Both the position numbers and the translations under genes were made by a program. From Rhizophagus irregularis (taxonomy: Eukaryota): DNA of 64,000 nt. The notes under the pieces were generated by a model. That model ran no database searches. It was given only the letters and a program-made list of their open reading frames with translations, and was not told where the DNA came from. Positions 34,768 through 61,761 of this stretch are shown here, one piece after another. Positions within the stretch are counted from its first letter, which is position 1; every line of letters starts with the position of its first letter. Where the stretch lies: assembly GCF_026210795.1 (NCBI RefSeq), contig NC_089433.1, positions 1,550,001 through 1,614,000 on the forward strand, written 5' to 3'.

Positions 34768-36084
34768 AGGACCCTGGAAAATACTTATATAGGTAAGGTC
34801 CCAAAAATATTTTTTATTAGTAGCTCTAAGCATAGGTTTTTACTATGATCACTAAGCATTGTTGATATCTAACCTTAAAAATTATATAAAAATAAGTAAA
34901 TCAATCTTCTAATCTAATTAAATTTTAATTATAACACATATAATTTATAAAATATATTTATTAATTAATATATTTTATTAAATCCAATTTTAAATATGTT
35001 GTGAAGCTAAACAAAACATAATATACAAATGATTAACAATATTCAATTAATAAAATTAATAAACAGTAAAAGAAAAATTCAAAATTAATACTATTACAAA
35101 AAATGTAAATTTCTCCATAAGTATTATACTTACACCCATAAATATTAATATGTAGGTAGTTTCGACCTTGCTGAACAATTTTCAATTAATTTAGAAAGTC
35201 GATTTCATTTGACCAAAGAGGTGTAATTACGCTCTGAAGTTGTAAACGGAGAAATAAAAAATTTGAAAGTTAGTACCATTATGAAAGATGCACTTTTCTC
35301 CATAAGTATTATACCCACACTCATGAAAATTAATATATAAGTAGTTTCGACCTTGCTGAACAACTTTCAATTAATTTAGAAAGTCGATTTCATTTGACTG
35401 AAGTGGTGTAATTACGCTCTGAAGCTATAAACGAAAAAGTGAAAAATTTAAAAGTTATTACCATTAAAAAAAATATGCTTTTCTATATAAATATCATACT
35501 TAGCCTTATGAAAATTAAAATACAAGTAGATTTAACTTGCTGAACAAACTTACTTAAGCATAAAAGATAATTTGATATAACCAAAGTGGTAAGTAGTGAA
35601 ATTATATTTTAAAGTAAAACATATTTATAGTAATTTTATTTAACAAAATAAACATGTATAATATAGTAATTTTATATTAAAAATAATACACTGAGTTTAA
35701 TAAAAATTAAAAAAATACTATTGACAGATAATTAATAAAACATTGAAAAAAAAAATGAAATTTCATTAAAAAAAATTTTTGTTTATGTATTTATATAAAA
35801 TTGTGAAATATAGTACAAAATTAACACTTACCATTAGTGAAAATAAAATAAAAATTAATTATAAATTCAATATATAATATTTTAAAAAGTTATATAAATA
35901 TGAAAAATAAGCAATTAAAAACTTTTAGTATTTTAAAATAATACCAAAAATATGCAATTTAATTATCTTACATAGTATAAAATTTTCTTAAAATTAAGCA
36001 TTATAAAATTCTTACATCATAAAACTTTTCGATGTTGGCTAAGCATCTTGGTACCTTACATATATAAGCATTTTCTGAGGTCCT
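34768..36084. mobile_element. Non-autonomous TIR element with internal ~185-bp tandem repeat
   Basis: ~35-bp imperfect TIRs AGGACCCTGGAAAATACTTATATAGGTAAGG / CCTTACATATATAAGCATTTTCTGAGGTCCT; TSD GTTTCAAT/GTCTCAAT; 2-3 tandem units at ~35110-35590. Confidence 0.75.
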
Positions 36085-37040
36085 GTCTCAATCCTTAAAG
36101 CTATTAAGAATTTTGAGTTGAGTAAATGTGAAAAGGATATCATAGATTACAATCTCTCGTACGCTCTTTTTATTTGTAGAAGTATAGCCAGTCATGATTA
36201 TATATATTTCTTTCTCTAAATCATATTACTTAGGCTTCTTAGCTTTTTGTGCCTATTATTTGTCCTTTGATATACTGCTCTTCGTAGAAGTATGTTGAGC
36301 ATTCTATTTAGAACCAGAAGGTAATGGTGAAGTAGAACTATCATCATTAGTAGCTGAGCCTTGTGAGACAATATGAGCATATGTGACCATTTAGTTCTTT
36401 CCTTTTAGAGTAAATGGCTAGGACCCTGCTTACTTATAAGATAGGTTACCCTCAGGCCTAAGGTAAAAATCATATATAAAATTCTTTGCAGATCCTACTA
36501 TAAAAGGAAATTTTATGTTACATTGTTATGATGTTTTTCCTTTTTAGCTAATTAACCAATAAATTTTTTAAAAAAAAGTAAGGTAAAAACTATTAGTAAA
36601 GGGCCAATTTTTTACAGTGACCATTATTATAAGTAAGCGAAATCCTACTTCAACTGAAATGTTACTTTCAGGTGATGTTTCTAACAAGTTAAGTCAAATC
36701 AAGTTTGAATCAATTTTAAAATACTATTTATACAGTAAAATATACCTTACAGTCAACTCTTCATATAACGAATTTTAATATAATGAATTTTACAATATAA
36801 TGGATCATCAGTATGATACAGATTTTAACATATGAAAAAAATCTCATTATACCAAATTTTACTAATTAAATGCTATATACCGTTTAACGAAGTAAATTTT
36901 ATAAACCATATATGAAAAATGCTCCTTTTAATAATGAATTTTCTTTTATAACAAATTTTTTTTCAATATAATGGAAATATTTTGTGTAACTTATGTTTTT
37001 GCATTATAAAATATAATTATTATACAACAATATACCATAA

Positions 37041-37800
37041 GGGGTGTGCCAGAAATTACGTGATTTAGTGGGTGGGTGGGGGGTCAGGTCCTGCAATCAG
37101 GTATCACAATATACCTTTTATGGTAATAGTATATCTTTTATAGTAAATAATATATAATTTGTTTATTAAGAAGCTTTTTTGCAATTATCTCACCATCTAA
37201 AAGTCCAATTTTAATGAATTTTTTTTTTGTTTTATAAAGTATAAAGAGAGCTATAAAATAAAAAAAAGTTTATGCAAATTGAATTATTGGATAGTAAAAT
37301 AATTGTATTATAATATATATATAATACTATATAGTAATTTATTTATTAAGAAGCTTTTTTGCAATTAACTTACTATGTAGCAGTTCAATTTTAATGAATT
37401 TATTTTTGTTTTGTAAAGCATAAAAAGGTCTACAAAACAAAAAAAAAGTTTATGCAAATTGGATTATTGGATAGTGAAATAATTGTATTATAATATATAT
37501 ATAATATATGATAATTTATTTATTAACAAGTTTTTTTGCAATTATTTCACCATCTAGCAGTCCAATTTCAATGAATTTTTTTTTATTTTATAAAGCATAA
37601 ACAGGGCTACAAAACAAAAAAAAGTTTATGCAAATTGGATTATTAGATAGCAAACTAATTGTATTATAATATATATATTAATATAATATATTATATATTA
37701 TACTGTATGTATTTTTTTAGCCAATCAGAATTCAATCACATGGTGGGTAGGGGGGTCAGGTCTCTAATTGAGCATAATCACGTGATTTATGGCACGCCCC
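37041..37800. mobile_element. PIF/Harbinger-type MITE with three ~180-bp internal tandem units
   Basis: TIRs GGGGTGTGCCAGAAATTACGTGATT / AATCACGTGATTTATGGCACGCCCC; TAA TSD on both sides; units start near 37163, 37343 and 37520. Confidence 0.88.
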
Positions 37801-40373: not shown

Positions 40374-42535
40374 CCGTATTTTGCGGGCCACAGTACCCCC
40401 CTATGCACAGTACCCTACACAAAAATTTTGTCAGATTTTTTAAATACCTGGATATTTCGCACAGAGACTGGAGACATTCAATTTTTAACCTCCAAAATTT
40501 ATAAAATCTCTGGGTACAACACAAGAAAAAAAACATATACACTGTATAATATCCGGGTATTTATTATCAACTTTATTTATTATATATGATATTACAATAT
40601 GCAATACATTATTAAAATCCTTCAATATAGAACATTATTCTTCATCAGAAGTTAGTTCTTGATTTTGATTTCCATCTTCTCCACTACTATTATTACCACC
40701 ATTGTTTTCTTTACTCTTACCTTTATCTGTTTCAATTTCCCATTCATTTTCATAATCATTTTCTTCGGTATATTCATTTTATTCATCATCTGAATTATTT
40801 ATATCTACCTCATCATCATCCTCCGGCATGCCTAGTAACTTATCATAATCAAATAAGTCATTATCTTTCGAACCATCGGTATTTGTTGAAACTCCACAAC
40901 ATTTGAAAGACCTTCTAATAAGATCTTTGTCAACATCATCCCATGATTCCTTGACCCATGTTGCAACTGTTGAATAGGAAGGTTTTTTAATCCTTCCAGC
41001 TGGAGTAAGAGTATGAATGGTAGAAGACATCTAATCATTATATCGTTCTTTAACCTGCAAATTATAAATAAATGTTAACAAAAATCAAAGAATTTATAAA
41101 TAAAACATGCTAAATTGCTAACAATAAAAAATTTTAAAGAATTATATACAATTTTTACCTTAGCTTTAAAGCTTTTGTTAATTGCAACGTCTAATGGTTG
41201 CAATTTAGATGTGCAACCACCTGGAATTACGGCAATATTTGTATTTTTTTCTACCAACCGATTTTTAACAGAACTTACAATATGACCACGAAAAGAATCC
41301 AAAACCAGTAAGGAACGCGAATTACCAAAAGGGTTTCTTGAGGTCCATACAGTTTCAATCCACCATAGCATTTCCTTTTCATTCATCCATCCTTTTTCAT
41401 TAGCTCGTATATGAATACCATGTGGAAAATTTTCTTTTGGCACATTTTTCAATTTAAAAATGCAAACTGCTGGGAGCTTACTGCCATCAGCCATACATGC
41501 AAAGTACAACTGTAAAAGATGAGCGCTCATGGCCTGTAGTACGAATGCTGACTGTTTTTGCGCCCTTATGGTCTATAGTGAAATTACTTGGCAAATCAAA
41601 CCATAGTGGTGTCTCATCCATATTACCTATATATTTTAATGGATAGTCATGCTGAATCCTTCTATATAAAATATAACTCAAAAAACGTTTTGTTTTTCAA
41701 TCAAATCTGATGGTAATTGTTGTGCTACAGTTGTTCTATGACGTTCGCTAAGATTATATCTTCCTAAAAAACCACTTAACCATTTATTTGAAAATTTAAA
41801 TGAAGTGATATTTGGATTATTTGCTAAAAAATCCTGATTTCTAGACAACGTGATAGCTTTTTTGGTGATCATTTTTCGAGTAACAGGATTTTGATTTGTT
41901 CTTCTTTTACAAACCCACGTAAATAAATCATCTTCTATATCTGAATATTTAGCAGATTTACCCGGATGAAGCTTAAGAACATGAGGCGCAAATGCTAATA
42001 ACTTAGCTTTATTGTTATTCCAATCACGCACTTGTTTTGGTTGAATATTAAAATATTTTGCAGTTTCACGTTTACTTCCTCAATTATTTTCCAAATAATG
42101 CACTACCATTAATTTTTCTCTTACATTCCATTGTCGTCTTTTCTTTTGTGATAAGCGATTACGTGCTTTTGGATTTTTTCTGTTTCTGATAACAACCATT
42201 TTTACTTTGAAATAAATTCGCATCACAAATAAAAGACAAAGAAAAAAATACGCGTTTATCATTTTAAAGAATTTATGTATTATACAAAAATAAGGGGAAC
42301 AGATAAACGTGATTTATATGAATCTTTTTTCCTGAAAAAAGTAATTTTCCTTACTTTTTAAATTTAAATATATCCGGATATTATACAAGGTAAGTATCCC
42401 GGGTACTTTATAAATCTTATACCCCCTTATGCACAGTACTTATGCTGTACCCCCCTATATAATATACCCCGGGTATAGCCTCCAACTCCCTAAAATATGC
42501 ATCATACCCGGGGTACTGTGGCCCCTGTTATACGG
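40374..42535 (-). mobile_element. Pogo/Tigger-like Tc1/mariner DNA transposon
   Basis: TIRs CCGTATTTTGCGGGCCACAGTACCCC / GGGGTACTGTGGCCCCTGTTATACGG, TA TSD, internal transposase. Confidence 0.92.
40635..42199 (-). pseudogene. Pogo-type DDE transposase (HTH + CENP-B-like HTH + DDE), frameshifted
   Basis: FKFSNKWLSGFLGRYNLS, IGNMDETPLWFD, LLVLDSFRGH and IPGGCTSKLQPLDVAINKSFK spread over several broken ORFs; one intron near 41055-41158; acidic tail. Confidence 0.9.
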
Positions 42536-43158
42536 TAATAGCCTAATAGGTGCTATTTCACCTGGTCTTAACATCTAATTGTGATTTGTAATATGTTAAA
42601 TTTTCTATTAAACACAATTTTTGTAATCTATTACACCTTAGAGTTGAGTGTTTAATTTTTTCATTAACTCACGAATTTTAACAATCTCATCATCAATAAT
42701 TTTAATTTCTTGCTGCGCGGCCAAATTTAAAATATGTGCAGAACACCTATAATGTCAAAAAAACTGATCATTAAGTTCTCTTGTAAGTTTTTCTGCAATT
42801 ATTCTTCTACAAACTACCATTGCCGATTCATTATCAGTAGTTAAAGCCAAAGTTTTTTCAAGTACAGTCAACTCTTTTTATAGTTACTCTGTTATAGTCA
42901 CATTTTACTATATAGTCGCACCAGTTGAATGTTCAAAACACTTTATTATTAAAATCTATCATATATAGTCACAATCTATCTATAGTTACTATCACACCTA
43001 TCCTCAAAAATCTTATATTAAAAAGAACCGTTTATAATTATAGTTATATAAAGAATATATTAAATAACTTGGCATCTAATAATTGTATAAAGATGTGTCA
43101 TAGCTTGTTAGAATCGTCTCACTAAGACGAATCGAATGGTGGTAATTTTATCCTTTTA

Positions 43159-43662
43159 CTGTGCAAACAGTCTTATGACTTTATCTTTTATTTATATTTT
43201 AAATCGAAACTAGAGAGTAGAGACGAACAATATTACAAAATAAGAAAATAAACTAATAAAAAATAAAAAGAATAGCTTCACGATTCATACAAGTAAAGAA
43301 ATCTAAACTAAAATAAATTAAAGAAAAGAAAAACTAAACTATTACAGAATCGCATACTCCAACTTTACCCGAAGGCCAGTGTAAGTCAACTATCCAACAT
43401 CCAAAAATCCAGTCTGTTACCAGAAAGAGATCCTAAGAGGTTGAACTATTAAGCAGCACAGAAAATCCAAGTGCGAGATCTAAGATCCACCCTGAATTAT
43501 AGAAGAGAATATCCAAGAAATCCAGGAATCCTGAGAAACTGACGCCAAAGAAGAGATGTGATGATGAAGAGAAGTATTAGAAGAAGAAGTGATAGAGAGG
43601 CTTCGTGATTTTGAGGAAGCGAAAATCCCTTGAGATTCTTCCCAAGCATAGAAAAGAACAAG
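43159..43662 (-). mobile_element. 5'-truncated LINE 3' end (relative of 46692-54671), copy A
   Basis: Reverse complement matches the end of ORF2 (DSWISWI..SII.GGS) and the 3' UTR ending GTCATAAGACTGTTTGC; flanked by TTTTATCCTTTTA. Confidence 0.9.
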
Positions 43663-43675
43663 TTTTATCCTTTTA

Positions 43676-44069
43676 CTATGCAAACAGTCTTATGACTTTA
43701 TTTTTTATTTATATTTTAACTTCAAAAATTTTAAAATCGAACAATATTACAAAAATAAGAAAATAAATTAATAAAAAATAAAAGAGTAGCTTTATGACTC
43801 ATACAAGTAAAGAAATCTAAACTAAAATAAAATTAAAGAAAAGAAAAACTAAACTATTACAGAATCGCATACCCTAACTTTACCCGAAGGCCAGTGTGAG
43901 TCAATTATCCATCATCCAAAAATTCAATATGTTACTAGAAAGAGACCCTAAGAGGTTGAACTGTTAAGCGGTGCAGAAAATCCAAGTGTGAGATCTAAGA
44001 TCCGCCTCGGATTATAGAAGAGGATATCCAAAAAATACAGGAATCCTGAGGAACTGTCGCCAAAGAGAG
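43676..44069 (-). mobile_element. 5'-truncated LINE 3' end, copy B
   Basis: Same 3' UTR with a shorter 5' extent; flanked by TTTTATCCTTTTA. Confidence 0.9.
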
Positions 44070-44216
44070 TTTTATCCTTTTATGATTACTGGCTGATGAG
44101 TTATTCAACAAAATGTTAAGCATCAGCATTATTATATTTCTTGATTTACGTTTACTGCGTCATTTAACATTTTGCTAAATATCTCGGTACCTAGTAATTG
44201 TAAAAAGACGATTAAT

Positions 44217-44433
44217 GAGTATCAGTGTCATGCAATGGGTATAGAATGAGTAGGCAACGTGTACCTAGCTTCAGATCAGCCTAAAATGGCCCGATAGGGA
44301 ATGTCTTCAAGTGGTGCTGTTACCTGAGGAATTAAGTACTCGGTTATAATGGTATCTATGGAGATGATAGGACACAAACCCGAAATTAGTCTCATAAGAG
44401 GCAATGGGTGGTCTGGCCGTAAACACTAGCAAA
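44217..44433 (+). mobile_element. Short GC-richer retro-insertion, probably a 5'-truncated SINE of a second family
   Basis: Flanked by the 17-bp direct repeat GTAAAAAGACGATTAAT (44200-44216, 44434-44450); no ORF. Confidence 0.65.
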
Positions 44434-44943
44434 GTAAAAAGACGATTAATAGCTTATTGGAATCACCTCATCAAGACGAATCGAATGGTGGTAGGCTTAT
44501 CTCTCCGTGATCAATATCGACGGAGTTACTACTTAAAAACTATTTAATATTTTTTAATTTTGGAAATTGATCTAGTGATTGGATTTCGATATATTTTATA
44601 CCATTAGATTCGTCGCATTAAGACGAATCGAATGGTAGTAAGATCGTCTCTCTAGGATCAATATTGGCAGAATTATTACACAAAAAACCATTAATATTTT
44701 TTAATTTCAGAAATTAATCTAATGATTGGATTTCAATGTATTTTAAACCATTAGAACCGTCTCATCAAGACAAATTAAATGGCGGTAAGATCATCTCTCT
44801 ACAATTAATATTGGAGGAGTTACGATACAATAAAGTTTTAAGTATAATTTTGACTAAAATTATGTTAATTTTTGGCCAGAATTATGATATACTAATATAA
44901 GAAATTTTTTATATAGTCACATCTCTTTATAATCACCAAATAT

Positions 44944-46676
44944 ATGGGTTGGTCACCCTATCTTAGTGGTTAGTCACTGAGACCCTCATTAAGCCTGAGT
45001 ATGGTGAGGTCGCAGGTTCGATTCCTATGACCACGGAAATAAAAGAATTTTACTGCGGACGCTACAACCAATAGTGTGAAGGTACAGGGGATTAGTGTAG
45101 TTGGACTGCATCATGGTGAATTAGTGTGTACGGTTAGGCCGCACATTTCAACTAAGGGTCATGGTGTCCTTCTAACGTTCCCTATGAGGCCATTGGCATG
45201 TGCGCAGTCCTGTCCGGCGAGGTCGCTACTATACCTTGGGAGGAGGCTTCCATGGCCAGGTGGTCACTCTACGATACCGCTTGGGGTCAGTAATGGCTAG
45301 ATGGTCGTTCTAGATGGTAAAGCTGACGGTGCAATGTCTTAGTGGTAGTTTGACCTTCTGTTAGGTCATAGACCAACCAAGGTGTTCGTGCACAGACAGA
45401 TAGCTTGGTGATTGGGTTCCGATTCCATCTCGATGGGCGCAATGGTTGGTGATTCATAGTGGTTCGATACCCACCATAAGGGATGATCCTGGGTAACACC
45501 TACAAGCTTACTGTCCAGGTGGTCACTACAAAGTATACCACTTGGGGATTACAACTGTACTATCGGTGGTGGGTAATCGTGGGCTGTAGTGGCCTTTGAG
45601 TGAGACCTGTTACCTAATATGGTGGTATGGAAGGGTCTAGATGTTTGAAGGTTATCTGACGAAAGTCCTCTGTGACAGTAGTAGTGGTGAGGGGTTTATA
45701 ATAGTAGCCATTACAGTATCATGCAACAGATTAAAGGACGAGTAGGGTGGTGTTCTTCCGATCCAAAGGCCTTCGGGTCCCTGGGGTATGCCTGATTGAT
45801 GGACGTGCTGGATAAGTTGTCTTGGTTAAAAGGTGGCCTGGATGACATCTGGTGGTTCAATGATGGCGAGGATACGAACGACCTACCTCCATAACCTTCA
45901 ATAGAGGGTGCGGAAAGTAGTGGCTATAGTTGTTTCCGAAATTCAATTGGCAAATCCGAAATCCGAAATTACGAAATCGTAATTAATTACGTATTCCGAA
46001 ATTCCGAAATTTGCATAATAGTGCGAAATTGCGAATATCTCGGGATCTAGTGATCAGATTTTGATGATCTTACTACCATTCGATTCGTCTCATCGAGACG
46101 AATCTAATAATATGTGTTTCATATCTATAGCACCGATATTGATGGAGTTAATTTACTATAAACATTTAATGAATTTTTGTGTCGGAGCACGATCTAGTGA
46201 TTAGATTTGAATGAATTTACCACCATTCGATTTGTCATGACGAGACGATTCTAATGGCGGTAAGATCATCTTTCTAGCATTGAAATTAACGGAGCTATTA
46301 TGCTATAAATATTTAAAAGTTATTGGTATCGGAGCGCGATCTAGTGATTGGATTTAAATGATCTTACTACCATTAGAATCGCCTTATCGAGACGAATCAA
46401 ATGGTAGTAAGATCATCCAAAACGGATCACTGGGTGCCGAGTTATTATTTATTAAAGTTTTTATATATAAATCGGCAAAAATTAAGGCTAATTCTGGCCA
46501 AATATTTTCGTAATACGAAATTAATTACGGAGTCCGAAATTAATTACGGAATACGGAGTTTTTCTAATGAATTACCTAATAATTACAGAATTACGTAATT
46601 ACGTATTTCTGTAATACTAAAATAATTTCGGACACAAGTATAGTAGTGGCCACTAAACGTACAATACACTTGTAAA
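44944..46676 (+). mobile_element. ~1 kb tRNA-headed SINE-like element, copy 1 (interrupted by a MITE)
   Basis: A-box-like TCTTAGTGGTTAG and B-box GGTTCGATTCC at the 5' end; non-coding body homologous to 54687-55698; flanked by TSD ATAATCACCAAATAT. Confidence 0.8.
45925..46642. mobile_element. hAT-type MITE inserted near the 3' end of SINE copy 1
   Basis: TIRs TATAGTTGTTTCCGAAATT / AATTTCGGACACAAGTATA; 8-bp TSD GTAGTGGC; the empty site is visible in SINE copy 2. Confidence 0.9.
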
Positions 46677-46832
46677 ATAATCACCAAATATGAGGATCAT
46701 CGCAACTCTTTCCTGAAATTTTGAAAATACTAATAAAATTTATTTTTGAAATTTTCGTTCGAAAATTTCTTAGTGCTCGTTCTAAATACTAATATTTTCC
46801 CAGTTGCTTTCCTCTTTACTGAGCTTTAAACT

Positions 46833-48956
46833 ATGACTACACCTCCAACTCCTTCTGTTATTAACCCGGATATTCCACCGCCACCGCGTCCTGTTATTTC
46901 TACTCCCTCTGGAGACTGACCTTTATCTCCCACTAGTACCGCTGGCGCACCTAATAAACGTACACGTACTGTCTCTGATGACGCGATGAATGTTGATATA
47001 ACTTCGCCCTCTGCTCCTGCTCCCTCCCTTATTTCTACCGTTCCTTCTGGTCTTCCTGTCAACAAAGTCCATGTGATTACCTCTCCTCATAATACTACTA
47101 CTCCTGTTGATACTGTTGACGCTTCTATCCATGCTCCCTCCAACACCAGTGGTAAAGGCAAAGCTGTCGCCTTTGATATCCCAGAACGATGACCATCTCC
47201 TGATGGGAATGCTGCTGCTATCAAATCTGCACCTTCTCGTTATCATGCTGCGGCCTACCTACGCGATGCGCCTGACGCGTTCAAAGCTAAATTCACCACC
47301 AATCGCTCCATGTGTGACGAAGTGGATTGTTCCCTCTCCCGTTATTCTTCTTATGGCGCTCGCGCACGATGTGAAGGATCAGGCGATAACAAGAAAATCC
47401 TTGTCTTCTTCAATAATCATGATGATTATACCGATTGTATCACCTCCCCACGTGCTGATCTCCTCGATTTGGCCTTCAGTCATTATTCCCCTGCAGACGT
47501 CAAGCTCAGTGATGAAATGAAGTCTTTGTTCGTCACTGATATTCCACTTTTTCTAACCGAGACTCAAGTCCGTCAGGCATTTTCCAGATATGGCACGGTA
47601 ATCAAGTGCAAATTTACTCCTAGGAAACATTACTATAATGGACATATCCAGTTTTCCTCCGTGGATGCAGTTACCCAATTTAATGATATATGGGCGATCA
47701 TTTGCCTTGGTAATTCTTTACGTGTCTGCCCGGCATCCTTTTCGAAATCCCAATGCGATAGCTGCAGAGAACATGTTGCTATCCTCGCCGGCATCCCAAA
47801 GAATATTAAAGAAGCTGACCTGTTGGAAATTGCTACTCAAGTTAACGCTAAGGCCTTTAACGTTCCTCTATCTATCAGTTCTTACAAGCCTAAACCCTAT
47901 GTATATTTGAATTTCTCCTCATTTGAATCTCTTGAAGCTGCCAAAGAAATGACCGTGGCTTTCCGCGGCAAAGGATTAACATGGCACCCTCCCAATGAAG
48001 CACAAACTTTATGCCACGTTTGTGGGCGTCCTGGTTGTTCTCCTTCTGTATGTAATCTTCGTATCACACAGAAAGTGGATGATCGCCTTAATAAACTTTA
48101 TTCTTGCTTCAATGCTGGCCCTAGACGTGGTTGTCAGGATTCACGCCAATTACGTGAAAATTCCAATTCCCGTTCAAGATCGCGATCCAATTCTAGATCC
48201 CGCAATAATAATTCCTCTTCATCCCGTTCCGACAACAATAACAATAATACTAACACTTCTCGTCCCAATACTTCTCAAAGTACCAACCGGACCAACAATA
48301 ATACTAATAATCACAGGAACAATGAAAATTCTTCTGGCTCTACTCAATCTCCACATAAACCTCATTCTGTCAGTTTTACACCACCTACTTCTCCATCTGA
48401 CAATTATGCCCATACACTTCCTCAACATATTATTGATGAATTAAAAGCGCAGATCAAAGAGATCGCTAAAACCCTACGTACTCTAGAGGAAACTGTCTCT
48501 TGGATGAATGATACTATCACGTCCCATGAGTATAGGCTATCTGAGCTTGAATCAATGATGAATTATGACAACCCTAATGACTCTGATTTGTATCCGCCTC
48601 GTGATGATCATGAAAATCAAAATCATTCTTATGATATAAATGGATGGGATGATGCTCCAACCCAAGACACGAATTCTGAATTCAATCTTCCTCCCCATAC
48701 TTCCCCTTCTCTTATGGACACTTCTCCTGATGCTTCTTTCTCAGTCCTGAATCCTAATTCCGTCTTATCAAGAAGACATGTCCCGTTACCTAACTCCCGA
48801 CCTACTATTATTGCTCCTGATGCTAATACTTCCCGTTTGCAATCGGAAATTTTTAATGTCACCAATACACAAAAGAATCTTTCTGCCCAACTTGGTTCGA
48901 TTATGGAAAAATTGGACTCTTTCTCTCCCTCAAAACCCTCCCCTTTCAATGATTGA
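46833..48956 (+). pseudogene. LINE ORF1 (RRM-like domains, Cys knuckle, RS/N-rich linker, coiled coil) with two in-frame TGA stops
   Basis: ATG 46833 is in frame with ORFs 46986 and 47310; SLFVTDIPLFLTETQVRQAFSRYGTVIKC and KPYVYLNFSS (RRM-like), CHVCGRPGCSPSVC, LKAQIKEIAKTLRTLEE. Confidence 0.85.
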
Positions 48957-51900
48957 ACACCAATTTATATCGGGTGCTTCACAGGGATCTCACCCCCCTG
49001 ATAGTGCGCTACTTAATATTAATAGTCCTAATAACTGTCCTTCTTCCTTTTCTCCTCTTATTAATTTTGGACAAATCAATGTTAATGGTTTGTGCTCCCC
49101 TATTCGACAATTATATTTGTTAAATTATTTTCTTCATTCTTCTTTTGGCGTTTTATCTTTAAATGATACTCGTCTTACTTCTTCCAGTGCTAAATTTATT
49201 TATCAAACTGAACATTCCCAACATAATTTTAAGTCCTATTAGGCTCCTTCCCCTTCTAATTCACGACCTCATGATGGTGTTGGTCTTTTACTTCGCCATC
49301 CCTTACATAAACATGTTCAGAAGATTGATCCTTGGAAAGGTCGTCTTTTAAAATTAGATCTTTTTTTTCATCAAACTAAAATTTCTATTATTTCAGTTTA
49401 TATTCCTCCTTATCATTCTATTCATTACAAAGAACGTGATGCTATTTCTGCACAACTTAATTTATGGCTTGATAGAGCCCGTTCTAATAATTATCATGTA
49501 GTTATCCTTGGTGATTTTAATGCAGATGAAATTTCACATTCACATCTTCCTCAACATCATTTGAAAATTTTGCGATCACTTTCTTCTCGATATTTTACAG
49601 ATCATCAATCCCATATTTCTTCAATTTCAGGTCCTAGTTCTACCTTTTATCATCAGAATGGTTCTTCAAGACTTGATTATATTTGGTCATCACCTGGATT
49701 TCCTGCTCCCAGTCTTTTCTCTTATGTTGAATCTTGTCCCAAGTTGAATGATAACCAATTTACTGATCACCGTGTCCTCATTGCGGCCTTCGACTTTAAT
49801 TCTTGTTTCGCTACTTTAGCTAAAGCTAGACTAAAACAGAAAAGCGAACAACGCACCATTTTTCTTTACAAGAATTTAAAAGAAGACACTTGGGACACAT
49901 TTTCTAACGAAGTAAATTCACGTCTCGAGTTGTATTTGGCCACACACCATCCTTCCGTATCTTCACTTTCAGCTATTTCCTTAGACAAACTTTGGCACGC
50001 TTTTAAACGCTCTATTCTTGGTGGTGCCATTGATTCTCTTCCATTTCAACATGTATCTAATACTCATCATTATAAATATTCTCCGGAACTTACGATGCTT
50101 ATTGCTATCAACAAATTCTTGGATAGATTATTGTTTAAATTGACCACATCTAGGACTAATCGTCCCGCTCAGATTTCACAAATGATTAATTCTTTACCTA
50201 CACAATTAATTATTTTGAAATCCCTTTAACAGATTATACTATACCTATTTATAGTACTACACCACTTCCTGCTTTTGTCAAATTTTTGCGTTCACAAAAA
50301 GCTTTGGTCTCTGCTTATCTTTCCACGCTATTTCATCAACATCGTGTGGATTCCATTGAATATTATACTGCTCTTAGAGACGAACAATTCTCTATGTCAC
50401 CGGGTTCCTTTATTTCTTCAGCCCTGTCAGTGGAACATCGCTCTATCGTTCTTGATAGAGTCTTGGTTGTAATTGACTCCAAACCCACGTTACTTACCAA
50501 GCCTTCAGACATCAAACAAGCTGCTATCAAACACTTCCAATCGGTTGTTACTCCTCCATTGGTTCAGCATTCTTCTATTGATGAATTTCCTCCACGCTGG
50601 CAAAGAGCATATACTCCTATTTCTGACATTGACTTGTCTTTATATACTTCGGTCTTGTCTCCTATTCTGGAAGAAGAATGGAAGAACACTATCCAGTCTA
50701 TGCCTAATAACAAAGCCTCTGGTCCTTCAAAAATTTCTTATGAAATGCTCAAACATTTAACTGGAGAAGCTTTCAATTTGTCTCTTGTTTTAGCCAATGC
50801 CTGCCTTACTCATGGTGATATTCCTGCGGATTGGTGTGAAGCGCTTGTTTATCCCATCCTGAAGCCTCATGAATTTGATGCACAATTAAAGAATACACGA
50901 CCTATCACTTTATTAGAAACTGTTCGTAAATGTGTGGTCAAGGTCGTTACAACTCGTCTTTCAAAAATCCTAGCTGATAATCAAATACTTCAGGGTGGTA
51001 ATTTTGCTGGATTACCAGGTGGATCCACTGACATTCCTATCAAAATGCTTGATGCGATTATTCATCAACGCCGCTTTGACAAAACTGATGACCAAGAGTT
51101 ATGGATTGTTTCCCAAGACATTTTTAAGGCCTTTGACTCGATTGATTTAAATATGCTCAAGTTGGCTTTAATCCGTTTACATATTCCGCCCTTGTTGATA
51201 AAATTTATTATCAATCTTTTCACAAGACGCAATAATAAAATTATTACTCATTATGGTGATACTTCCGGATATAGAGTTAGAATCGGTATTGATCAGGGTG
51301 AAATTATTTCCCCATTATTATGGGTGATATATTTAGATCCTTTGCTTACTACACTTAATCGAGAAGCTTGTGATCCCTTCCTTTTGAAATCTTCTGCGTT
51401 ATTAGATTATTCCCCGATTGAATATGAACAACATAACCTTCCTGTTTCACATATCACATTTATGGATGACTCTACTTTGATTGCTTCATCTAAACGAGGA
51501 ATTGAAGATCGCCTTTCCATTACAGCTGAATTTTATACTTTAAATAATACTCAAGCTAATTCAGCTAAATATATCTTTCTTTCTTCTGAACAATTCTCTC
51601 AACCTGTAGTGTTTGATCTTTTCCCATCTTCTTTAATCCAAACTTGTACTCTTACTTTAAAAGCTTTAGCTTTATTCAAGTCTTTTCGCTTTTTAGGTGT
51701 CTGGTTTTGCCTTTCAGCTTCTTCTCGCTTTGTTCATGATCAAAGTACTTCCATGGTCAAAGACATGGCTGCTCTACTCAGTCCTAAGAAACTTTTGGCA
51801 CAACATGTGGCTTATCTTTATAACGTTGTCTTACTTCCAAGGCTAGAATTTCGCCTACAAACCACATTATTTGCTGAATCCACCATTAATCGCATAGTTT

Positions 51901-54408
51901 CTCCAATGCTTTCTCTCATTCGACAAAAGGCTGGTTTAGCCTCAGTCACCCCTCTTTCCGCGCTTTTCACATTGTTGCCGTTCTCTATTCAACAAGCATT
52001 TGGTCGATTTCTATCGTCTCATGTGGCTTCATGGCAAAGAATTTTTTCTCACCCCTTACATAAAACCTTTGCCAATTATATGATTACTTATATCCAAAGC
52101 TTCCTAGATTGTGATGCCTGTCCTTCTACTATTGACTTGGAACCATGATCCCATACATTTTCCTTGCGAACACATTCTTTGTTTAATTCTTTATTATTCT
52201 CTTCTCGATTAAATATCACATGGTCTTTATTGTTCCGACCTCCAAGAAAGGATCAACGTTCGGTGATTCCACTCTGGTCTATTTTACCTAAAGAATTATT
52301 CACTTCCATGAAAAATGTTCGAACCAATTTTGGTACTCGTTTCCTTGCCCAACTGGTTTCTCCGTGTGGCTCCAGATTTCTTTCATGGAAAGATTTACGC
52401 TTTCTTAAACGAGTTTCGAACAAAGGATCTGTGCCTACTTGGTTTACTTATTTATTTAATTTAGTTGTTATTTCTAATTCTTCTTCTTTTTTTCTTTTAC
52501 CACAATTTAGAATACCTAATTCCTATACTGTTGCTTCTATCTGTTCTATAGATATTAGTCGAAATTATTTGTTTAATCCACAATGGGCAATTTTTTTTAA
52601 TCGCGATACTAACTCTTTCCTTGTTGGTTGTGTGATCATTACCTATCCTGCTCCGTGAAATGAAGCTCTTATTTCACATTGGATTGCGTCATCTGTCAAT
52701 GACTTATTATCAGAATTCACTGCATGCCAAGGTTGTGCCTCTGCTATTCCATGATCCTCTACTTCCAAAACATTGCTTAAACGATGTCCTTCTAAAAAGT
52801 GCTTCTCTTATGTGCCTTTATCAAGTCTTATCCGTTACCCTACGAAGCCTCGTACTTATATACATGCGGATACTCGTTCGGTCTCACTTTCCGCTTCGTT
52901 AGGCTATGCCAAATCTCTTTCTTTTTGCTCCAGTTCGGCTACCTCCTATGCTTAACCAAGTGTCTAGGATTTCTGATCTCCAACTTCCTTCTTCGGTGTC
53001 TACACTGTATATTGATGGATCCTTCCTTCCTCCTTCTAGTCATCCGACACCTTCGATGGCTTATGCATGGACTGCTATCAATTCTGATGGTTTTATTCTT
53101 GAATCTCATTATAATACCATTCCTTCCCTCTTTCCCTCTGCATTGCGTTCCGAAATTTTTGCCTTATTGCATAAATTGGATTCCCTCCCTCGGTATTCCA
53201 AGATTACTGTCGCTACTGATTGTGCTCAATTAATTTCCTTATGGTCTACGTATGTGGATGCTCCGTTCATTTCTAAAATGCTTAAAGAATTCAATCACCT
53301 TCTATGGTTTTCGGCACGAGCTATTATCTCACAAAAGAATCTGGAAGTTACTTTAATCAAGGTTCCTGCTCACGCTGACGATTCTTTGAATAACCATGTT
53401 GATGACTTAGCGAAAGCTGCTCATACAGACTCACGTCTTTCCTCTATTTCGCCTGCATTCTTGGCTCCTTGCATTTTACAATTTGATTCTTTACCTGTGG
53501 ATATGAATATCCGGAAATTCATTGGAGATATTTTTGACGCCAAGAGTCTTTTGACTCTTGCTTTATTACCAAGATTCAATCTTAATTCCTCTATTTCAGA
53601 TATTGATTGGGCTTGTACCAAATTTTGTTTTAATAATAAACAATTACAATCCTCCCATCGAAATGGCCGGTCTGAATTTTGTGCTTTCCGTATCAAGATT
53701 TTATTGGATATGCTTCCGACACTTACAACTCTTCAAAGATGAAAGCCTCATATCTATGATCCGAGTTGGCTCTGTCCTCAGTGCAACTCCTCTCCTGAGA
53801 CTTTAGACCATTTATGGACTTGTCCGTATATTTTACCTGAATTTAGTCCTTTTAATACTTTTAAAACACTTCTGATGAACCTTAGAACCGTTTGTCTTGG
53901 AAAATTTCTCTCCGTGACTCCTTTGAAATCTTTACCGGACTCCTTCGCTGTGGAATTTACGGCTATGGATTGTTGGAACTGTGACCCTCCTTCAAATTCT
54001 TGTCTGCGACTTGCACGTGGACTTATACCGATATCTCTTACTAGTTTTCTTGAAACACATTTTTCATTATCCACTGTTTGTTCTATTTTTGATACACCTT
54101 TACATGATTTTCATTTTGATCTCTACGTGCAAATCTGGTTGTGCTGTTCTGTTTTCTTTCACCATTGGGAATCAGCTCAAGGCATAACCAATAAAATGAA
54201 ATCGTCCACTATTGGACCTTCTCCTACTTCTCATCCTTCCTCGCAAATTTCTCCTGCAATTTCGACACCTTCCTTGGCGACAGCTTCCTTGGATTCCTGG
54301 GTTTCTTGGGTTTCCTCTTATATAATCCATGGGGGATCTTGGATTTCGCATTTGGATTTTTGGCGCCGCTTAACAGTTCAGCCTCTACTTAGGATTTCTT
54401 TTTGGTAA
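48949..54408 (+). pseudogene. LINE ORF2: AP-endonuclease, reverse transcriptase, RNase H and C-terminal zinc finger; several stops and frameshifts
   Basis: EN: QINVNGL, LGDFNAD, SRLDYIW, TDH. RT: KASGPS, RPITLLE, QDIFKAFDS, GIDQGEIISPLLW, FMDD, FRFLGV. RNase H: YIDGS, RSEIFA, ATDC, KVPAH..DSLNNHVDDLAK. Zinc finger: CPQC....ETLDHLWTC. Confidence 0.95.
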
Positions 54409-54686
54409 CGGATTGGATCTTCAGATATGCTGGATAGTTGACTCACACTGGCCTTCGGGTAAAGTTGAGGTATGCGTTTCTGTAATAGTTTAGTTTTCTT
54501 TACTTAATTTTATTTTGTTTAGATTTCTTTACTTGTATGAATCGTGAAGCTAGTTCTTTTTGTTTTTTATGTTTAATTTTCTATATTATATTTGTAATAT
54601 TGTTCGATTTGAGTTTTGTACTTTTCATTTAAAATTTATAATAAAAGATAATGTCATAAGACTGTTTGCTCATAATCACCAAATAT

Positions 54687-55698
54687 AGGGTTGGTCACCC
54701 TATCTTAGTGGTTAGTCACTGAGACCCTCATTAAGCTTGAGTATGGTGAGGTCGCAGGTTCGATTCCTATGACCACGGAAATAAAAAGAATTTTACTGCG
54801 GACGCTACAACCAATAGCGTGAAGGTACAGGGATTAGTGTAGTTGGACTGCATCATGGTGAATTAGTGTGTACGGTTAGGCCGCACATTTCAACTAAGGG
54901 TCATGGTGTCTTTCTAACGTTCCCTAAGAGGTCATTGGTATGTTCAGAGTCCTGTCTTTAAGGTCACTGCATAGTATACCTTAGAGGTGGTGTCCTGTCC
55001 TGGTGGTCATTCTACGATACCACTGGGGGTACGGTTCGCTGTGCTAGATGGTCCCAGTAGATGGTAAAATCGTAGGGTGCAATGTCTTAATGGTAGTTGA
55101 CCTTCTAATAGGTCTTAGACCAACCGTGATGTTCCTGAACAGAACAGATAGCTTGGTGATTGGGTTCGATTCCCTTCTCTGATAGGCCCTGGTTGGTGAT
55201 TTCTGGTGGTTGATATCCACCATAAGGGATGATCCTGGGTAACACCTACAAGCTTACTGTCCAGGTGGTCACTACAAAGTATACCGCTTGGGGATTACAA
55301 CTGTACTATTGGTGGTGTGTAATCGCGGGCTGTAGTGGTCTTTGAGTGAGACCTAGTACCTAATATGGTGGTATGAAAGGGGTCTAGATGTTTGAAGGTT
55401 ATCTGATGAAAGTCCTCCGTGACAGTAGTAGTGGTGAGGGGTTTATAATAGTAGCCATTACAGTATCATGCAACGGATTAAAGGACGAGTAAGGTGGTGT
55501 TCTTCCGATCCAAAGGCCTTCGGGTCCCTGGGGTATGCCTGATTATGGACGTGCTGGATAAGTTGTCTTGGTTAATAAAGGTGGCCTTGATGACATCTAG
55601 TGGTTCAATGATGGTGAGGATACGAACGACCTACCTCCATAACCTTCAATAGAGGGTGCGGAAAGTAGTGGCCACTAAACGTACAATACACTTGTAAA
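54687..55698 (+). mobile_element. ~1 kb tRNA-headed SINE-like element, copy 2 (uninterrupted)
   Basis: Same head as copy 1, second B-box GGTTCGATTCC near 55163, many hairpins, flanked by TSD ATAATCACCAAATAT. Confidence 0.82.
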
Positions 55699-57454
55699 AT
55701 AATCACCAAATATGGACTGTCCCAAATGTGTGACTATAAAGAAAGTTGACTGTAGATTAAATTCTGTTAAAACTGATTTTATTGCATTTGCTATATTGTT
55801 TCCAGTATGATGGGTAGTAAAAGAAATAATATCTAATAAAAAGTTTTTTAGGTTCCAATTATTGTCAACATAATGAATTGTCAGACCAAGAAATACATCA
55901 TTATTACATGTAGAAGTCTACATATCTGTTGTTAAAGATAATTTGCCCAGAATTGCATTTAGATCTTGTATATTTTTACGTTTTTCTTTAAAATAATCAA
56001 CTACCAAAGTTTTTACTGTTTTTTTCATCTGGAATTTGATATTGAAAATCAAATTTATTGATCATTATTTTAAATCGCAAATTTTTAACAAATCATTTGT
56101 GAAATTATGCTTGTATATCGGCGGATTTGTTTACTTTTGCATAATGCTAAATTTTGAATGATTTTCATAATATCCGTCACCCAAAACTGGTTTATAATGT
56201 CATGAAATCACCTGATTGAATATCACTTGACTAAATAATAAGTCAAGTGAAAATCTACATTTGTGAAACTTAAATTATTTAACGTAAAATAGACACAAAA
56301 AAACCCATTTCGTTAACAAAAAACCCATTTCTCACCTGCATAGTATTTTTAATGTGTATTATTAGAAAGTAAGTATGTTTTAATAAAACAAAAAGTAAAA
56401 TAAAAATTTATATAGACACGATAGCTATGAATATTTATAAAAGTATTCTAAGACTCATTTAATATTTAAAAAATTTTTTTTTTTATAATAACTTTCATAA
56501 AATTGTCCATTTTTTGCATTTTTCAAAACATATTATTAATTCTTATTTATCTTGCTGTAGACAAAATAGGAACTTTATATCCAAACAAATTGTAAGCATA
56601 TGTATTATTGATTTTTACACAATAAAGATTTAGAAGCTATTGTATAAAGTGAGATTCCACAACAGATATTATCAGTATTGCTAAGAATAATATTTATTGT
56701 ATTTTGGCTTAAAAGAATTATTTATTAAATTTATCAAATTATTGTATTAATAAAACCAAATAAAATTTTTTTAATGTTTATCCCAGGTCCTACTGCGCCA
56801 TATGTAATAATTTGTGTAACAAAAGTACCTTAAAATAAACATGTTAATTAGAGGGTGAACAAATCCGCCGATATGGTGCAAAGAAAATAATTTCACACAT
56901 AAATCAATTCTCTAAAATATTTCAAACTTTTTTTTTACAACATTTAGCGAAATAGCATGATATGTATTAATATATATATTTCTTTGAAGTTATGGGCTAT
57001 TTCTATTATATTTTAAGCTGAATATATTTATATATCATTATCAGATTTTAGTATTAGTAAACGATTAGGCAAAAAAAGGTATATGCATTATTCTCAATAT
57101 CTTTATATTTGTTGAGATCTTTAATGCATATTCCACATACCTTTATTCTCTAATATAAAGGTTTAATATAAAAGTCTGTTGTATACTTTTCTGCTTTAAA
57201 TAAATTCAAGCTCAAAAAAAACATAAATGAAACATAACAAAGACTTGTATATAGAATTTATGACTATTCTTAGCTATCAGTGCCTATTTTTTTGATTACC
57301 ATATAATAATCCTGTAATGTATATTTTGTAATAATTGACAATATAATTGCTATTATAATTTAATATATATTAAAATACCATATTACAATGAAATGTAAAA
57401 AAACAATAATTTTGTAATATACTATGACAATTATCCTTTTATATTAGTTATAAT

Positions 57455-60562: not shown

Positions 60563-61761
60563 TAAAGCTCCTAATGGTTCGGGCTAAACAGGAGAACCGA
60601 TCCGAAACCGGCTCAAAATTCGGTTCAGTTCGGTTTGGGTATTAGAACTGAAAAACCAGCGGTTCAGTTCAATTTAATCCGATTTTTTATAAAAATGCGA
60701 AAAATCAAATAGACGCTCATCTAGTGATCGTATAAAGTCGAGCCATATATCATTGGATTCGTCTCGACGAGATGTGTTGAATGGTGGTAAGATCATATCT
60801 CTAGCATCGATAGATTATACGTTAGTCCACGCTAAATGATTTATCAATAATTGGAATTATTAAGCTATCTATCGATGCTAGAGACATGATCTTAGCGTCA
60901 TTTGACGCGTTTCAGCGAGACGAATCCAATGAATATAAATTCGTCCGTATACGACTACTGGATGGCGAATAATGTCAAGTTTCGCATTTTTTTAAAATTT
61001 TTGAGCGTTAAAAATTAAAAATTCCGATATATGAATTTATTCATCGTCCAATGGTCGTACAAATATGAATTAGGACTCATTGGATTTGTATCGATGAGAC
61101 GAGTCGAATGGTGGTAAGATTACGTCTCTAGCATCGATAGATAGCTTGCTAATGCCAATTTTTTATAAATCATTTAGTGTGAATTAACTTACGATCTATT
61201 AAGACTACAGACATGATTTCACCACCATTCGACTTGTCACATCGAGACGAATCAAATGAATCCTAATTCATATTTGTACGACCATTGGACGACGAATAAA
61301 TTCATGTATTGGAATTTTTAATTTTTAACGCTCAAAAATTTTAAAAAAATGCGAAACTTGACATTATTCACCATCCAGTGGTCGTACACGGACAAATTTA
61401 TATTCATTGGATTCGTCTACCTGAGACGCATCGAATGACGCTAAGATCATGTCTCTAGCATTGATAGATAGCTTAATAATTCCAATTATTGATAAATTAT
61501 TTAGCCTAGGTTAATGTGTGATCTATTGATGCTAAAGACATGATCTTACCACCATTCGATGCGTCTCATCGAGAAGAATCCAATAATATATGGATCGACT
61601 TTGTACGATCACTAGATGGACAGCTATTCAATTTTTTGCATTTTTATAAAAATCAGATTAAACCAAACCGAACCGCCAGTTTTTCGGTTTAGTTTTTACA
61701 GATTTTGGCTCTAATCCGAACCGTCTATAATCTGGACCAAACTGATCTGTTCAGAGTTTTA
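60563..61761. mobile_element. Foldback (long-palindromic) hAT-type MITE
   Basis: Ends TAAAGCTC / GAGTTTTA, TSD GTTATAAT on both sides; the arms ~60640-61150 and ~61190-61680 are reverse complements. Confidence 0.85.

Follow-up and report, generated by a model that had tools for sequence, protein, structure and literature searches.

A LINE and a short partner probably insert repeatedly at a preferred site inside a DNA transposon of Rhizophagus irregularis

Among described systems, the closest to the locus studied here comes from crocodilians, in which Tx1-Mar LINEs and the SINE family SINEU-3 target the non-autonomous Mariner-N4_AMi, the target site duplication (TSD) being 16 bp long (Kojima 2015, PMC4494074). 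According to the available text of that study, SINEU-3 has a target share of 90%, its tandems often sandwich the TSD, which was interpreted as sequential insertion, and truncated copies served to exclude hitchhiking. The same text places target-specific LINEs of the Tx1 clade in animals. The Xenopus APE-type LINE Tx1L inserts into the non-autonomous piggyBac-type element Tx1D (PMC4494074, PMC6719617). Drosophila R1 inserts in 28S rDNA, where new copies enter the 5' TSD and build head-to-tail arrays whose members are spaced by a TSD of constant length (14 bp); these tandem arrays carry untemplated letters at 5' junctions (PMC2718515). In trypanosomes, one or more elements of the ingi/RIME and L1Tc/NARTc pairs occupy a hot spot in RHS, and tandem L1Tc copies are flanked by the same TSD (PMC7563717, PMC5814959). 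Among fungi, a target or regional preference is reported for MoTeR, CNL1, and Grem-LINE1, with CNL1 arrays arising by self-insertion (PMC12810828, 10.1101/706580).

Here, we studied a window of 64,000 nucleotides (the whole stretch of R. irregularis DNA analyzed; contig NC_089433.1, positions 1,550,001 to 1,614,000), in which a LINE and two SINE copies stand head to tail within a DNA transposon. The features are as follows (window coordinates).

42865..55752, no strand assigned: host element, non-autonomous, pogo/Tc1-mariner type with terminal inverted repeats (TIRs); based on TIRs, flanking TA, and a frame restored on removal
43144..44082, minus strand: second stack, two 5'-truncated sister-subfamily LINE copies (392 and 502 bp); sequence comparison
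44929..44943, plus strand: TSD copy 1, host-left side; exact 15-mer match
44944..46676, plus strand: SINE copy 1, 1015 bp plus a nested insertion; sequence comparison
45925..46642, no strand assigned: TIR element of 718 bp nested in SINE copy 1, 8-bp duplication GTAGTGGC; sequence comparison
46677..46691, plus strand: TSD copy 2 (16 bp possible, counting the following G); exact 15-mer match
46692..54671, plus strand: full-length, dead LINE; domain searches and alignment to P0162
46833-48956, plus strand: LINE ORF1, with an RRM (47526-47657) and a C-rich knuckle; domain search
about 48931-54408, plus strand: LINE ORF2, with APE (to 49776), RT (50868-51701), RNase H (53002-53421), then CCHC
54450..54477, plus strand: short motif GGCCTTCGGGT..GTATGC, found in all three LINE 3' UTRs and in both SINEs (45768, 55515)
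54672..54686, plus strand: TSD copy 3; exact 15-mer, the LINE tail-TSD junction recurring in DAOM models P0003 and P0238
54687..55698, plus strand: SINE copy 2, 1012 bp, tRNA-like head; B box, ORF, and copy-number data
55699..55713, plus strand: TSD copy 4, 39 bp from the right end of the host element; exact 15-mer and empty-site contigs

A sequence-only reading of this window had proposed that four copies of one 15-bp TSD separate the three elements. This was borne out by an exact search, which found ATAATCACCAAATAT on the plus strand at 44929, 46677, 54672, and 55699, against a chance expectation of 0.0017 copies per window. The members (SINE, LINE, and SINE, of 1733, 7980, and 1012 bp) share one orientation, as had been stated, but the separation is not exact, with one or two additional letters (AT, A, possibly G) following the 15-mer. 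Removing the stack leaves one 15-mer at a distance of 39 bp from where the TIR ends (55752), in agreement with the single site previously placed about 40 bp inside the right TIR. Without its two stacks the host element measures 1194 bp, its TIRs are alike at 22 of 25 positions (TA included), and TA stands on both flanks, the combination by which Tc1/mariner-pogo elements are recognized. Excising 42865-55752 in silico yields an open transposase frame in the flanking sequence, which we take to be a hAT-like remnant, and since removal of the TA-flanked element restores this frame, both TIRs derive from one insertion. The right end of the host is multi-copy with mixed flanks in four sequencing runs (agreement 0.53-0.55). 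No autonomous DDE partner was found in the window; the adjoining DDE_1 remnant has different ends. The empty target can form an imperfect inverted-repeat fold that is modestly better than shuffles (13 of 300).

The same host element holds a second stack, 1 kb to the left of the first, in which TAAAAGGATAAAA(C/T)T, also a 15-bp duplication, occurs three times (44068, 43661, and 43144) around and between the members. Its two LINE copies were assigned to a sister subfamily by tblastn of P0030-P0040. Since its 15-mer differs, stacking also occurs without ATAATCACCAAATAT. The 15-mer could have been an integral part of the elements; instead, it is host sequence, because it occurs once in the empty site, and copies of the sister subfamily terminate at another 15-mer.

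The LINE is full-length as claimed, but dead, with seven stops and two frameshifts relative to P0162. Pfam places an APE endonuclease (PF03372/PF14529) ahead of a non-LTR reverse transcriptase (PF00078) in ORF2, a domain search detects the RNase H at E 3.7e-09, and there is no poly(A) tail. The copy is 92% identical in amino acids to gene models of a multi-copy R. irregularis family, its closest named relatives being from Rhizophagus, and no relative was found in the viral and prokaryote collections searched. Downstream of the CCHC in P0018 there is no PD-(D/E)xK nuclease motif. Among the references compared, P0003 scored 57-59 bits against human L1 and 68 bits against the best R2, so that the L1 match is no better. 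RNase H is also present in 16 of 20 distant relatives scanned among metagenome proteins; a pattern scan of metagenome contigs returned two loci, both rejected as chance matches in GC-rich DNA. Tx1-clade LINEs are not known to carry an RNase H domain. The fungal LINE departs from that clade in having one and in its Rhizophagus relatives, where the clade's host is an animal, and the target preference apparently arose in a LINE lineage that bears RNase H.

SINE copy 2 has an exact B box (GGTTCGATTCC at 54757), a longest ATG ORF of 59 aa, and no poly(A) tail. Its head matches the tRNA-clan model weakly (15.4 bits, E 0.77), ARAGORN makes no tRNA call, and reads of the RNA run X24 cover the head on both strands. 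The element is non-coding, multi-copy, and TSD-flanked, with 5'-truncated copies, as seen from truncation joints and high depth. The two copies do differ clearly mid-element, as had been noticed, the middle 305 nt containing 47 substitutions and 20 gap columns and the outer 707 nt 18 and 8; CpG losses are equal (7 and 7). SINE copy 1 matches the majority letter of the population at 17 of 18 hand-picked positions among 40 of 150 rows displayed, in a table covering only places where SINE copy 2 differs. An overall alignment of LINE and SINE is not significant, being equalled by 13 of 200 shuffles, and the likeness is limited to GGCCTTCGGGT..GTATGC, a pattern picked after inspecting the sequences and a weakly supported candidate for a recognition element. 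A ribozyme or strong hairpin at this motif was unsupported, folding being no better than that of shuffles (z +0.5 to +0.9), and Rfam gave nothing meaningful over 43000-57000.

As far as the accessible text of the cited studies goes, the fungal pair resembles Tx1-Mar and SINEU-3 in that a LINE and a SINE have a common target in a non-autonomous Mariner-type element. It differs in the RNase H and RRM-bearing ORF1 of its LINE, in its mixed SINE-LINE-SINE stacks, and in a SINE that is 1 kb long with a tRNA-like head, whereas SINEU-3 is short and snRNA-derived. Like Tx1L, the LINE is of APE type and lies in a non-autonomous DNA transposon, of pogo/Tc1-mariner rather than piggyBac type; the endonuclease specificity of Tx1L has been studied biochemically, to judge from a cited title, whereas the fungal site preference is predicted from sequence. 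R1 likewise has head-to-tail copies with a fixed-length TSD between them, but its target is rDNA, its direction of addition is known, and the text available mentions no SINE partner, whereas the fungal stack involves a DNA transposon and a SINE. The trypanosome systems also combine an APE-RT-RNase H LINE with a non-autonomous partner at one site of a multicopy sequence; there, insertion is into a gene family and the partners have no tRNA-like head, unlike the fungal SINE. RIME and NARTc are truncated LINE derivatives. In the portions available, MoTeR and CNL1 are related to R2 and directed to telomeres, Grem-LINE1 occupies pericentromeric regions with RNase H absent from its domain listing, and, unlike for the Rhizophagus LINE, no DNA-transposon-end target or SINE partner is mentioned for any of the three. 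The system had been called unusual; it is less so than suggested, because a LINE and a SINE that target a Mariner, with the TSD sandwiched between tandem copies, are published for crocodilians (PMC4494074). In the openly accessible article text searched, no paper was listed that describes Rhizophagus LINEs or SINEs as stacked or as preferring a target. Two papers name SINE and LINE families (PMC11075540, PMC11952901), and no passage on targets was matched in their searchable text.

Occupancy of the site in other material was assessed with reads of four runs (X1, X3, and X4, DNA; X24, RNA, chosen by species label) mapped on 54595-56100. Contigs with the empty-site junction numbered 25 in X1, 15 in X3, and 26 in X4. 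The TSD was involved in 10 of the 14 joints listed for the four runs. A LINE tail-TSD-TIR joint occurred in one X3 contig at depth 166 and in 19 X24 reads with 18 starts; three X4 contigs join the LINE tail to the TIR across a variant target of 13-15 bp (depths 21, 6, and 4, those at depth 4-6 being possible errors). Joints from LINE tail through TSD to a truncated SINE fell at five points (54890, 55357, 55388, 55402, and 55464), of which X3 by itself supplies three, at roughly the depth of a single copy; their short sides measure 25-29 letters and they were flagged "between: not known." SINE-TSD-SINE joints were also seen, as were SINE-variant TSD-SINE, LINE-TSD-23-nt LINE stub, and SINE-TSD-truncated SINE variant joints, and three X4 contigs run from the host-left side through the TSD into the SINE head. 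Further, in DAOM 181602, both loci (on two contigs) with models unspliced through the LINE tail carry this 15-mer, P0003/P0124 continuing into the SINE head and P0238 into the TIR. P0003 shares 6 of 43 window-private residues with the window LINE, and as this falls within the range of 1-19 among the 56 copies compared, it is not the orthologue of the window copy. Long gene models past the LINE end continue into a SINE or another LINE at all four loci, which is not a stack frequency, since gene predictors prefer joining coding neighbors; among short models across the tail, none has the peptide of the window copy and one has that of P0003. Under Kojima's criterion, an element is target-specific when one sequence type makes up >20% of its flanks. 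Here, both informative gene-model loci and all tail junctions displayed fit this target, in a sampling biased toward it because joints show only with both sides inside 54595-56100.

Since combinations at this one site differ among runs, repeated insertion there by the LINE and its short partner is likely. We consider it probable that the stack arose by repeated independent insertion at a preferred site, regenerated each time, rather than in one serial event, because a preference of the LINE endonuclease for the site is predicted, together with a fixed stagger of 15-16 bases that would keep it intact. In this the pair would resemble crocodilian Tx1-Mar and SINEU-3 in Mariner-N4 and the tandem arrays of R1. 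This agrees with the earlier suggestion of Tx1-like re-cutting, which empty, LINE-only, SINE-SINE, and truncated combinations and the DAOM models support. The LINE endonuclease would nick the bottom strand at the left edge (TTAT/AA), LINE or SINE RNA would be reverse transcribed from the target primer, and the top strand would be nicked 15-16 nt downstream; the SINE would be mobilized by the LINE protein. By analogy with R1, new members might join at the 5' copy of the duplication. More speculatively, because LINE and SINE are without poly(A) and RNA reads cross tail, TSD, and TIR, transcripts that read through might base-pair with the nicked target and sharpen the aim.

An unlikely alternative is that the elements have no sequence-specific target: they would insert anywhere AT-rich and tend to re-use an earlier duplication, this 15-mer being common only because DNA transposition, duplication, or unequal crossing-over later spread one filled host copy. 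The second stack's use of another 15-mer favors this, as do tandem models from more distant Rhizophagus LINE families (P0064 and P0111) and the frequency, in the text available, of double insertion at TSD junctions among non-specific Drosophila elements (10.1101/158386), but five distinct SINE truncation points and variant target sequences adjoin LINE tails, both informative DAOM loci have this 15-mer with at least P0003 a different LINE copy, and the 24 of 405 loose ends displayed include no group at a LINE or SINE tail, hence no other tail flank. It is considerably less likely still that one integration event copied several RNAs in series, the reverse transcriptase copying the 15-nt overhang and the new end priming the next RNA. 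Such an event would give identical duplications, like the four 15-mers seen, and the presence of more than one member in both window stacks and the similar CpG loss of the SINEs agree with it; the fixed 15-bp stagger alone, however, explains identical duplications, and the empty, LINE-then-TIR, SINE-SINE, and host-left-then-SINE states at the same 15-mer leave this proposal of the earlier reading unsupported for the family as a whole, and the authors who described R1 and SINEU-3 tandems with this anatomy interpreted them, in the accessible text, as sequential. Least credible is an assembly artefact or a composite element with the SINEs as LTR-like terminal repeats, suggested by the SINE-LINE-SINE symmetry and by the lack of any single read or contig across the whole stack in the mapping, but contradicted by TSDs that are internal as well as external, strongly divergent SINE middles (from which the sequence-only reading had already argued against LTRs), LINE tails without a SINE, a non-LTR enzyme set with APE and no integrase, and a LINE-TSD-SINE junction that recurs in the DAOM 181602 assembly. 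LTR and DIRS retroelements were likewise rejected on the internal TSDs and on the finding of only APE, RT, and RNase H.

If repeated insertion at a preferred site is correct, a fungus has an APE LINE-SINE pair that prefers one target and uses another transposon as a safe haven, and the approach seen in crocodilians and Xenopus evolved a further time, in another retrotransposon lineage. The stacks preserve a history of insertions across isolates of this largely clonal symbiont and explain why one class of gene models annotated in R. irregularis is oddly fused. Since the site is a defined 15 bp and near-intact coding copies exist in a sequenced strain, endonuclease specificity is directly testable. 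A broader scenario, which we regard as possible though doubtful, is that strict targeting of a DNA-transposon family evolved independently in arbuscular mycorrhizal fungi, in a LINE lineage that branches deeply, bears RNase H, and is unrelated to Tx1, that two sister subfamilies share out the 1.2-kb element, each with its site near one of the ends (3' ends outward), and that these LINEs and the 1-kb SINE prime without poly(A) via read-through target RNA.

The 718-bp TIR insertion nested in SINE copy 1, which the sequence-only reading had missed, is presumably hAT-like, judging by its TSD length.

The stack of LINE and SINE copies in Rhizophagus irregularis is a real feature. The 15-mer ATAATCACCAAATAT occurs in exact copies at 44929, 46677, 54672 and 55699, against a chance expectation of 0.0017 by composition, which bears out the sequence-only reading of four copies of one 15-bp target-site duplication, and the three members that it frames do share one orientation:

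Members of the main stack, with the nested element
Between the 15-mers at 44929 and 46677, + strand: SINE-like element, copy 1, 1733 bp
45925-46642: TIR element nested in SINE copy 1, 718 bp, with an 8-bp duplication
Between the 15-mers at 46677 and 54672, + strand: LINE, 7980 bp
Between the 15-mers at 54672 and 55699, + strand: SINE-like element, copy 2, 1012 bp

Copy 1 of the SINE is the longer because of the 718-bp element nested in it. As that reading had also held, the two SINE copies are clearly unlike in the middle, with 47 substitutions across the middle 305 nt versus 18 across the outer 707 nt. Its claim of exact separation stands insofar as a 15-mer lies at every boundary, but the 5' junctions carry one or two added letters after it (AT, A, perhaps G), so that the duplication may be counted as 15 or 16 bp long.

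Between the last 15-mer and the end of the right host TIR at 55752 there are 39 bp, in line with the ~40 bp of the sequence-only reading. The left TIR starts at 42865, and TA flanks both; removing in silico everything between them restores the open frame of a transposase remnant, and the two TIRs are therefore the ends of a single insertion, which measures 1194 bp once its passengers are taken out.

Elements in and around the host
43144-44082, - strand: second stack, two 5'-truncated LINE ends head-to-tail (392 and 502 bp)
42560-42864 and 55755-56000, - strand: transposase remnant, which we take to be hAT-like, split by the host element
About 40385-42530, - strand: decayed DDE_1 (pogo-like) transposase element with GGCCACAGTACCCC ends, unlike those of the host element

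Nesting at the locus reaches four to five levels. In the empty site (44912-55754), inverted TATAGTCACA/TGTGACTATA motifs in the host right end bracket the 15-mer target, and the fold of this target is of only modest significance (13 of 300 shuffles).

Contigs of the DNA sequencing runs X1, X3 and X4 and raw reads of the RNA run X24 (about 24% of the run), four of the 24 runs listed, were compared with 54595-56100. The empty site, in which host-left sequence, 15-mer and TIR are continuous, occurs in 25, 15 and 26 contigs of X1, X3 and X4, respectively, and the host TIR end continues into mixed flanks; the target is thus a multi-copy host sequence, which disposes of the earlier proviso that the 15-mer might be an integral end of the elements. 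Among the 14 joints listed, detectable only where both sides fall within 54595-56100, 10 involve the 15-mer.

Joints in other sequencing runs
LINE tail directly into TIR: X3, one contig, depth 166; X24, 19 reads, 18 starts
LINE tail, then one of three variant targets: X4, depths 21, 6 and 4
LINE tail, 15-mer, truncated SINE: truncation points 54890, 55357, 55388, 55402 and 55464
SINE to SINE: X4
Host-left, 15-mer, SINE head: X4, three contigs
From the inserted-letter table: SINE, variant 15-mer, SINE; LINE, 15-mer, 23-nt LINE stub; SINE, 15-mer, truncated SINE variant

The truncated-SINE joints rest on sides of 25-29 letters, and three of the five are in X3 at depths of 171-201, close to the 162-180 of the X3 right-flank pieces. 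No LINE or SINE tail ended loosely among the 24 of 405 loose ends listed, and no single contig or read of these four runs spanned 54595-56100. X24 reads map to both strands and so give no direction.

The same junctions appear in gene models of DAOM 181602, where, among 238 Rhizophagus-dominated proteins, models at two loci on contigs of different length run unspliced through the LINE tail. The C terminus of P0003/P0124, RLFAHNHQIYGWSPYLSG, reads LINE tail, 15-mer and SINE head; P0238 (RLFAHNHQIWTVPN) reads LINE tail, 15-mer and TIR, exactly matching a peptide predicted beforehand from the window. Only six of 43 window-private residues are found in P0003, which is therefore a different LINE copy. 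Long main-family models continue past the LINE end on four contigs, always into a SINE or another LINE, in a sample biased toward coding neighbors; P0177, a sister-subfamily model, continues into an integrase instead.

Most simply, the stack would have arisen by target-primed reverse transcription at a preferred site that is cut with a constant stagger. Synthesis of cDNA would be primed where the bottom strand is nicked, on the left edge of the site, and a top-strand nick 15-16 nt downstream would yield the duplication; the target, surviving each insertion, would stay open to the next LINE or SINE RNA, with the SINE presumably mobilized in trans and new members, by analogy with R1, presumably joining at the 5' copy of the duplication. 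Read-through RNA may aid priming, as the absent poly(A) tails and the RNA reads across tail, 15-mer and TIR would allow. Sequence-independent re-use of earlier duplications, combined with amplification of the filled host, is the main rival, improbable but kept alive by the second stack, which three copies of another 15-mer, alike apart from one C/T, frame 280 bp from the host left end. Both LINE insertion sites in the host are thus stacks with a 15-bp duplication, and the duplicated sequences differ. The 3' ends in either stack point toward the nearer TIR, and the second-stack ends, 81%-83% identical to the main LINE 3' end, match the sister subfamily P0030-P0040 (about 75% amino acid identity to the main one). 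Simple copying of a filled host is at odds with the different truncation points and partial states, which also argue against one serial event.

The 1-kb element is probably a SINE: an exact B box is present, the tRNA-clan model matches it weakly (15.4 bits, E 0.77), and it lacks both a poly(A) tail and any ORF over 59 aa. The common site and duplication suggest a partnership with the LINE. A short motif, picked after inspection, is common to the SINE and all three LINE 3' UTRs, and overall SINE-LINE similarity is insignificant (13 of 200 shuffles).

The LINE encodes an RRM in ORF1; in ORF2, a CCHC motif comes after the APE, RT and RNase H domains. Its RT is far from both human L1 (57-59 bits) and R2 (up to 68 bits). 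The window copy has seven stops and two frameshifts relative to the protein P0162. Its best relatives are R. irregularis gene models of at most 92% identity on many contigs, and the 20 distant long relatives looked up among the best 150 matches are all metagenome proteins. RNase H was found in 16 of 20 distant relatives scanned (19 of the 20 also among those looked up). The domain sets the LINE apart from the Tx1 clade, which is not known to carry it. Tandem gene models also occur in a more distant Rhizophagus family (P0064, P0111; about 33% identity), and the distant relative P0357 has a chromodomain.

LINE and SINE targeting of a Mariner is already known from crocodilians, and the Rhizophagus case would be a variant of it. 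Tx1-Mar and SINEU-3 target Mariner-N4_AMi with a 16-bp TSD, often as tandem copies sandwiching the TSD (PMC4494074), a close match in anatomy. Also close are Tx1L in Tx1D of Xenopus, R1 arrays, which have a 14-bp TSD and grow on their 5' side (PMC2718515), the ingi/RIME elements of the RHS hot spot, and the general double insertion seen in Drosophila (10.1101/158386); the fungal precedents described in the sources consulted are telomeric or pericentromeric. The Rhizophagus stack probably works like the Tx1-Mar/SINEU system, by a likeness in anatomy. No paper on where Rhizophagus LINEs or SINEs prefer to insert turned up in a literature search that did not extend to Repbase or to the supplementary files of PMC11075540 and PMC11952901.

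Further features of the window
60646-61689: near-perfect foldback-like palindrome, 1044 bp, 85% self-complementary
19396-19493, + strand: tRNA-Leu(TAA), called by ARAGORN

The nested 718-bp element has a repeat of about 147 bp in common with the host element (44456-44841) and this palindrome. A further CAGTCAACT TIR start lies at 36750; at 35060-35547 and 37124-37736, within probable TIR elements, units of about 180 bp are repeated in tandem.
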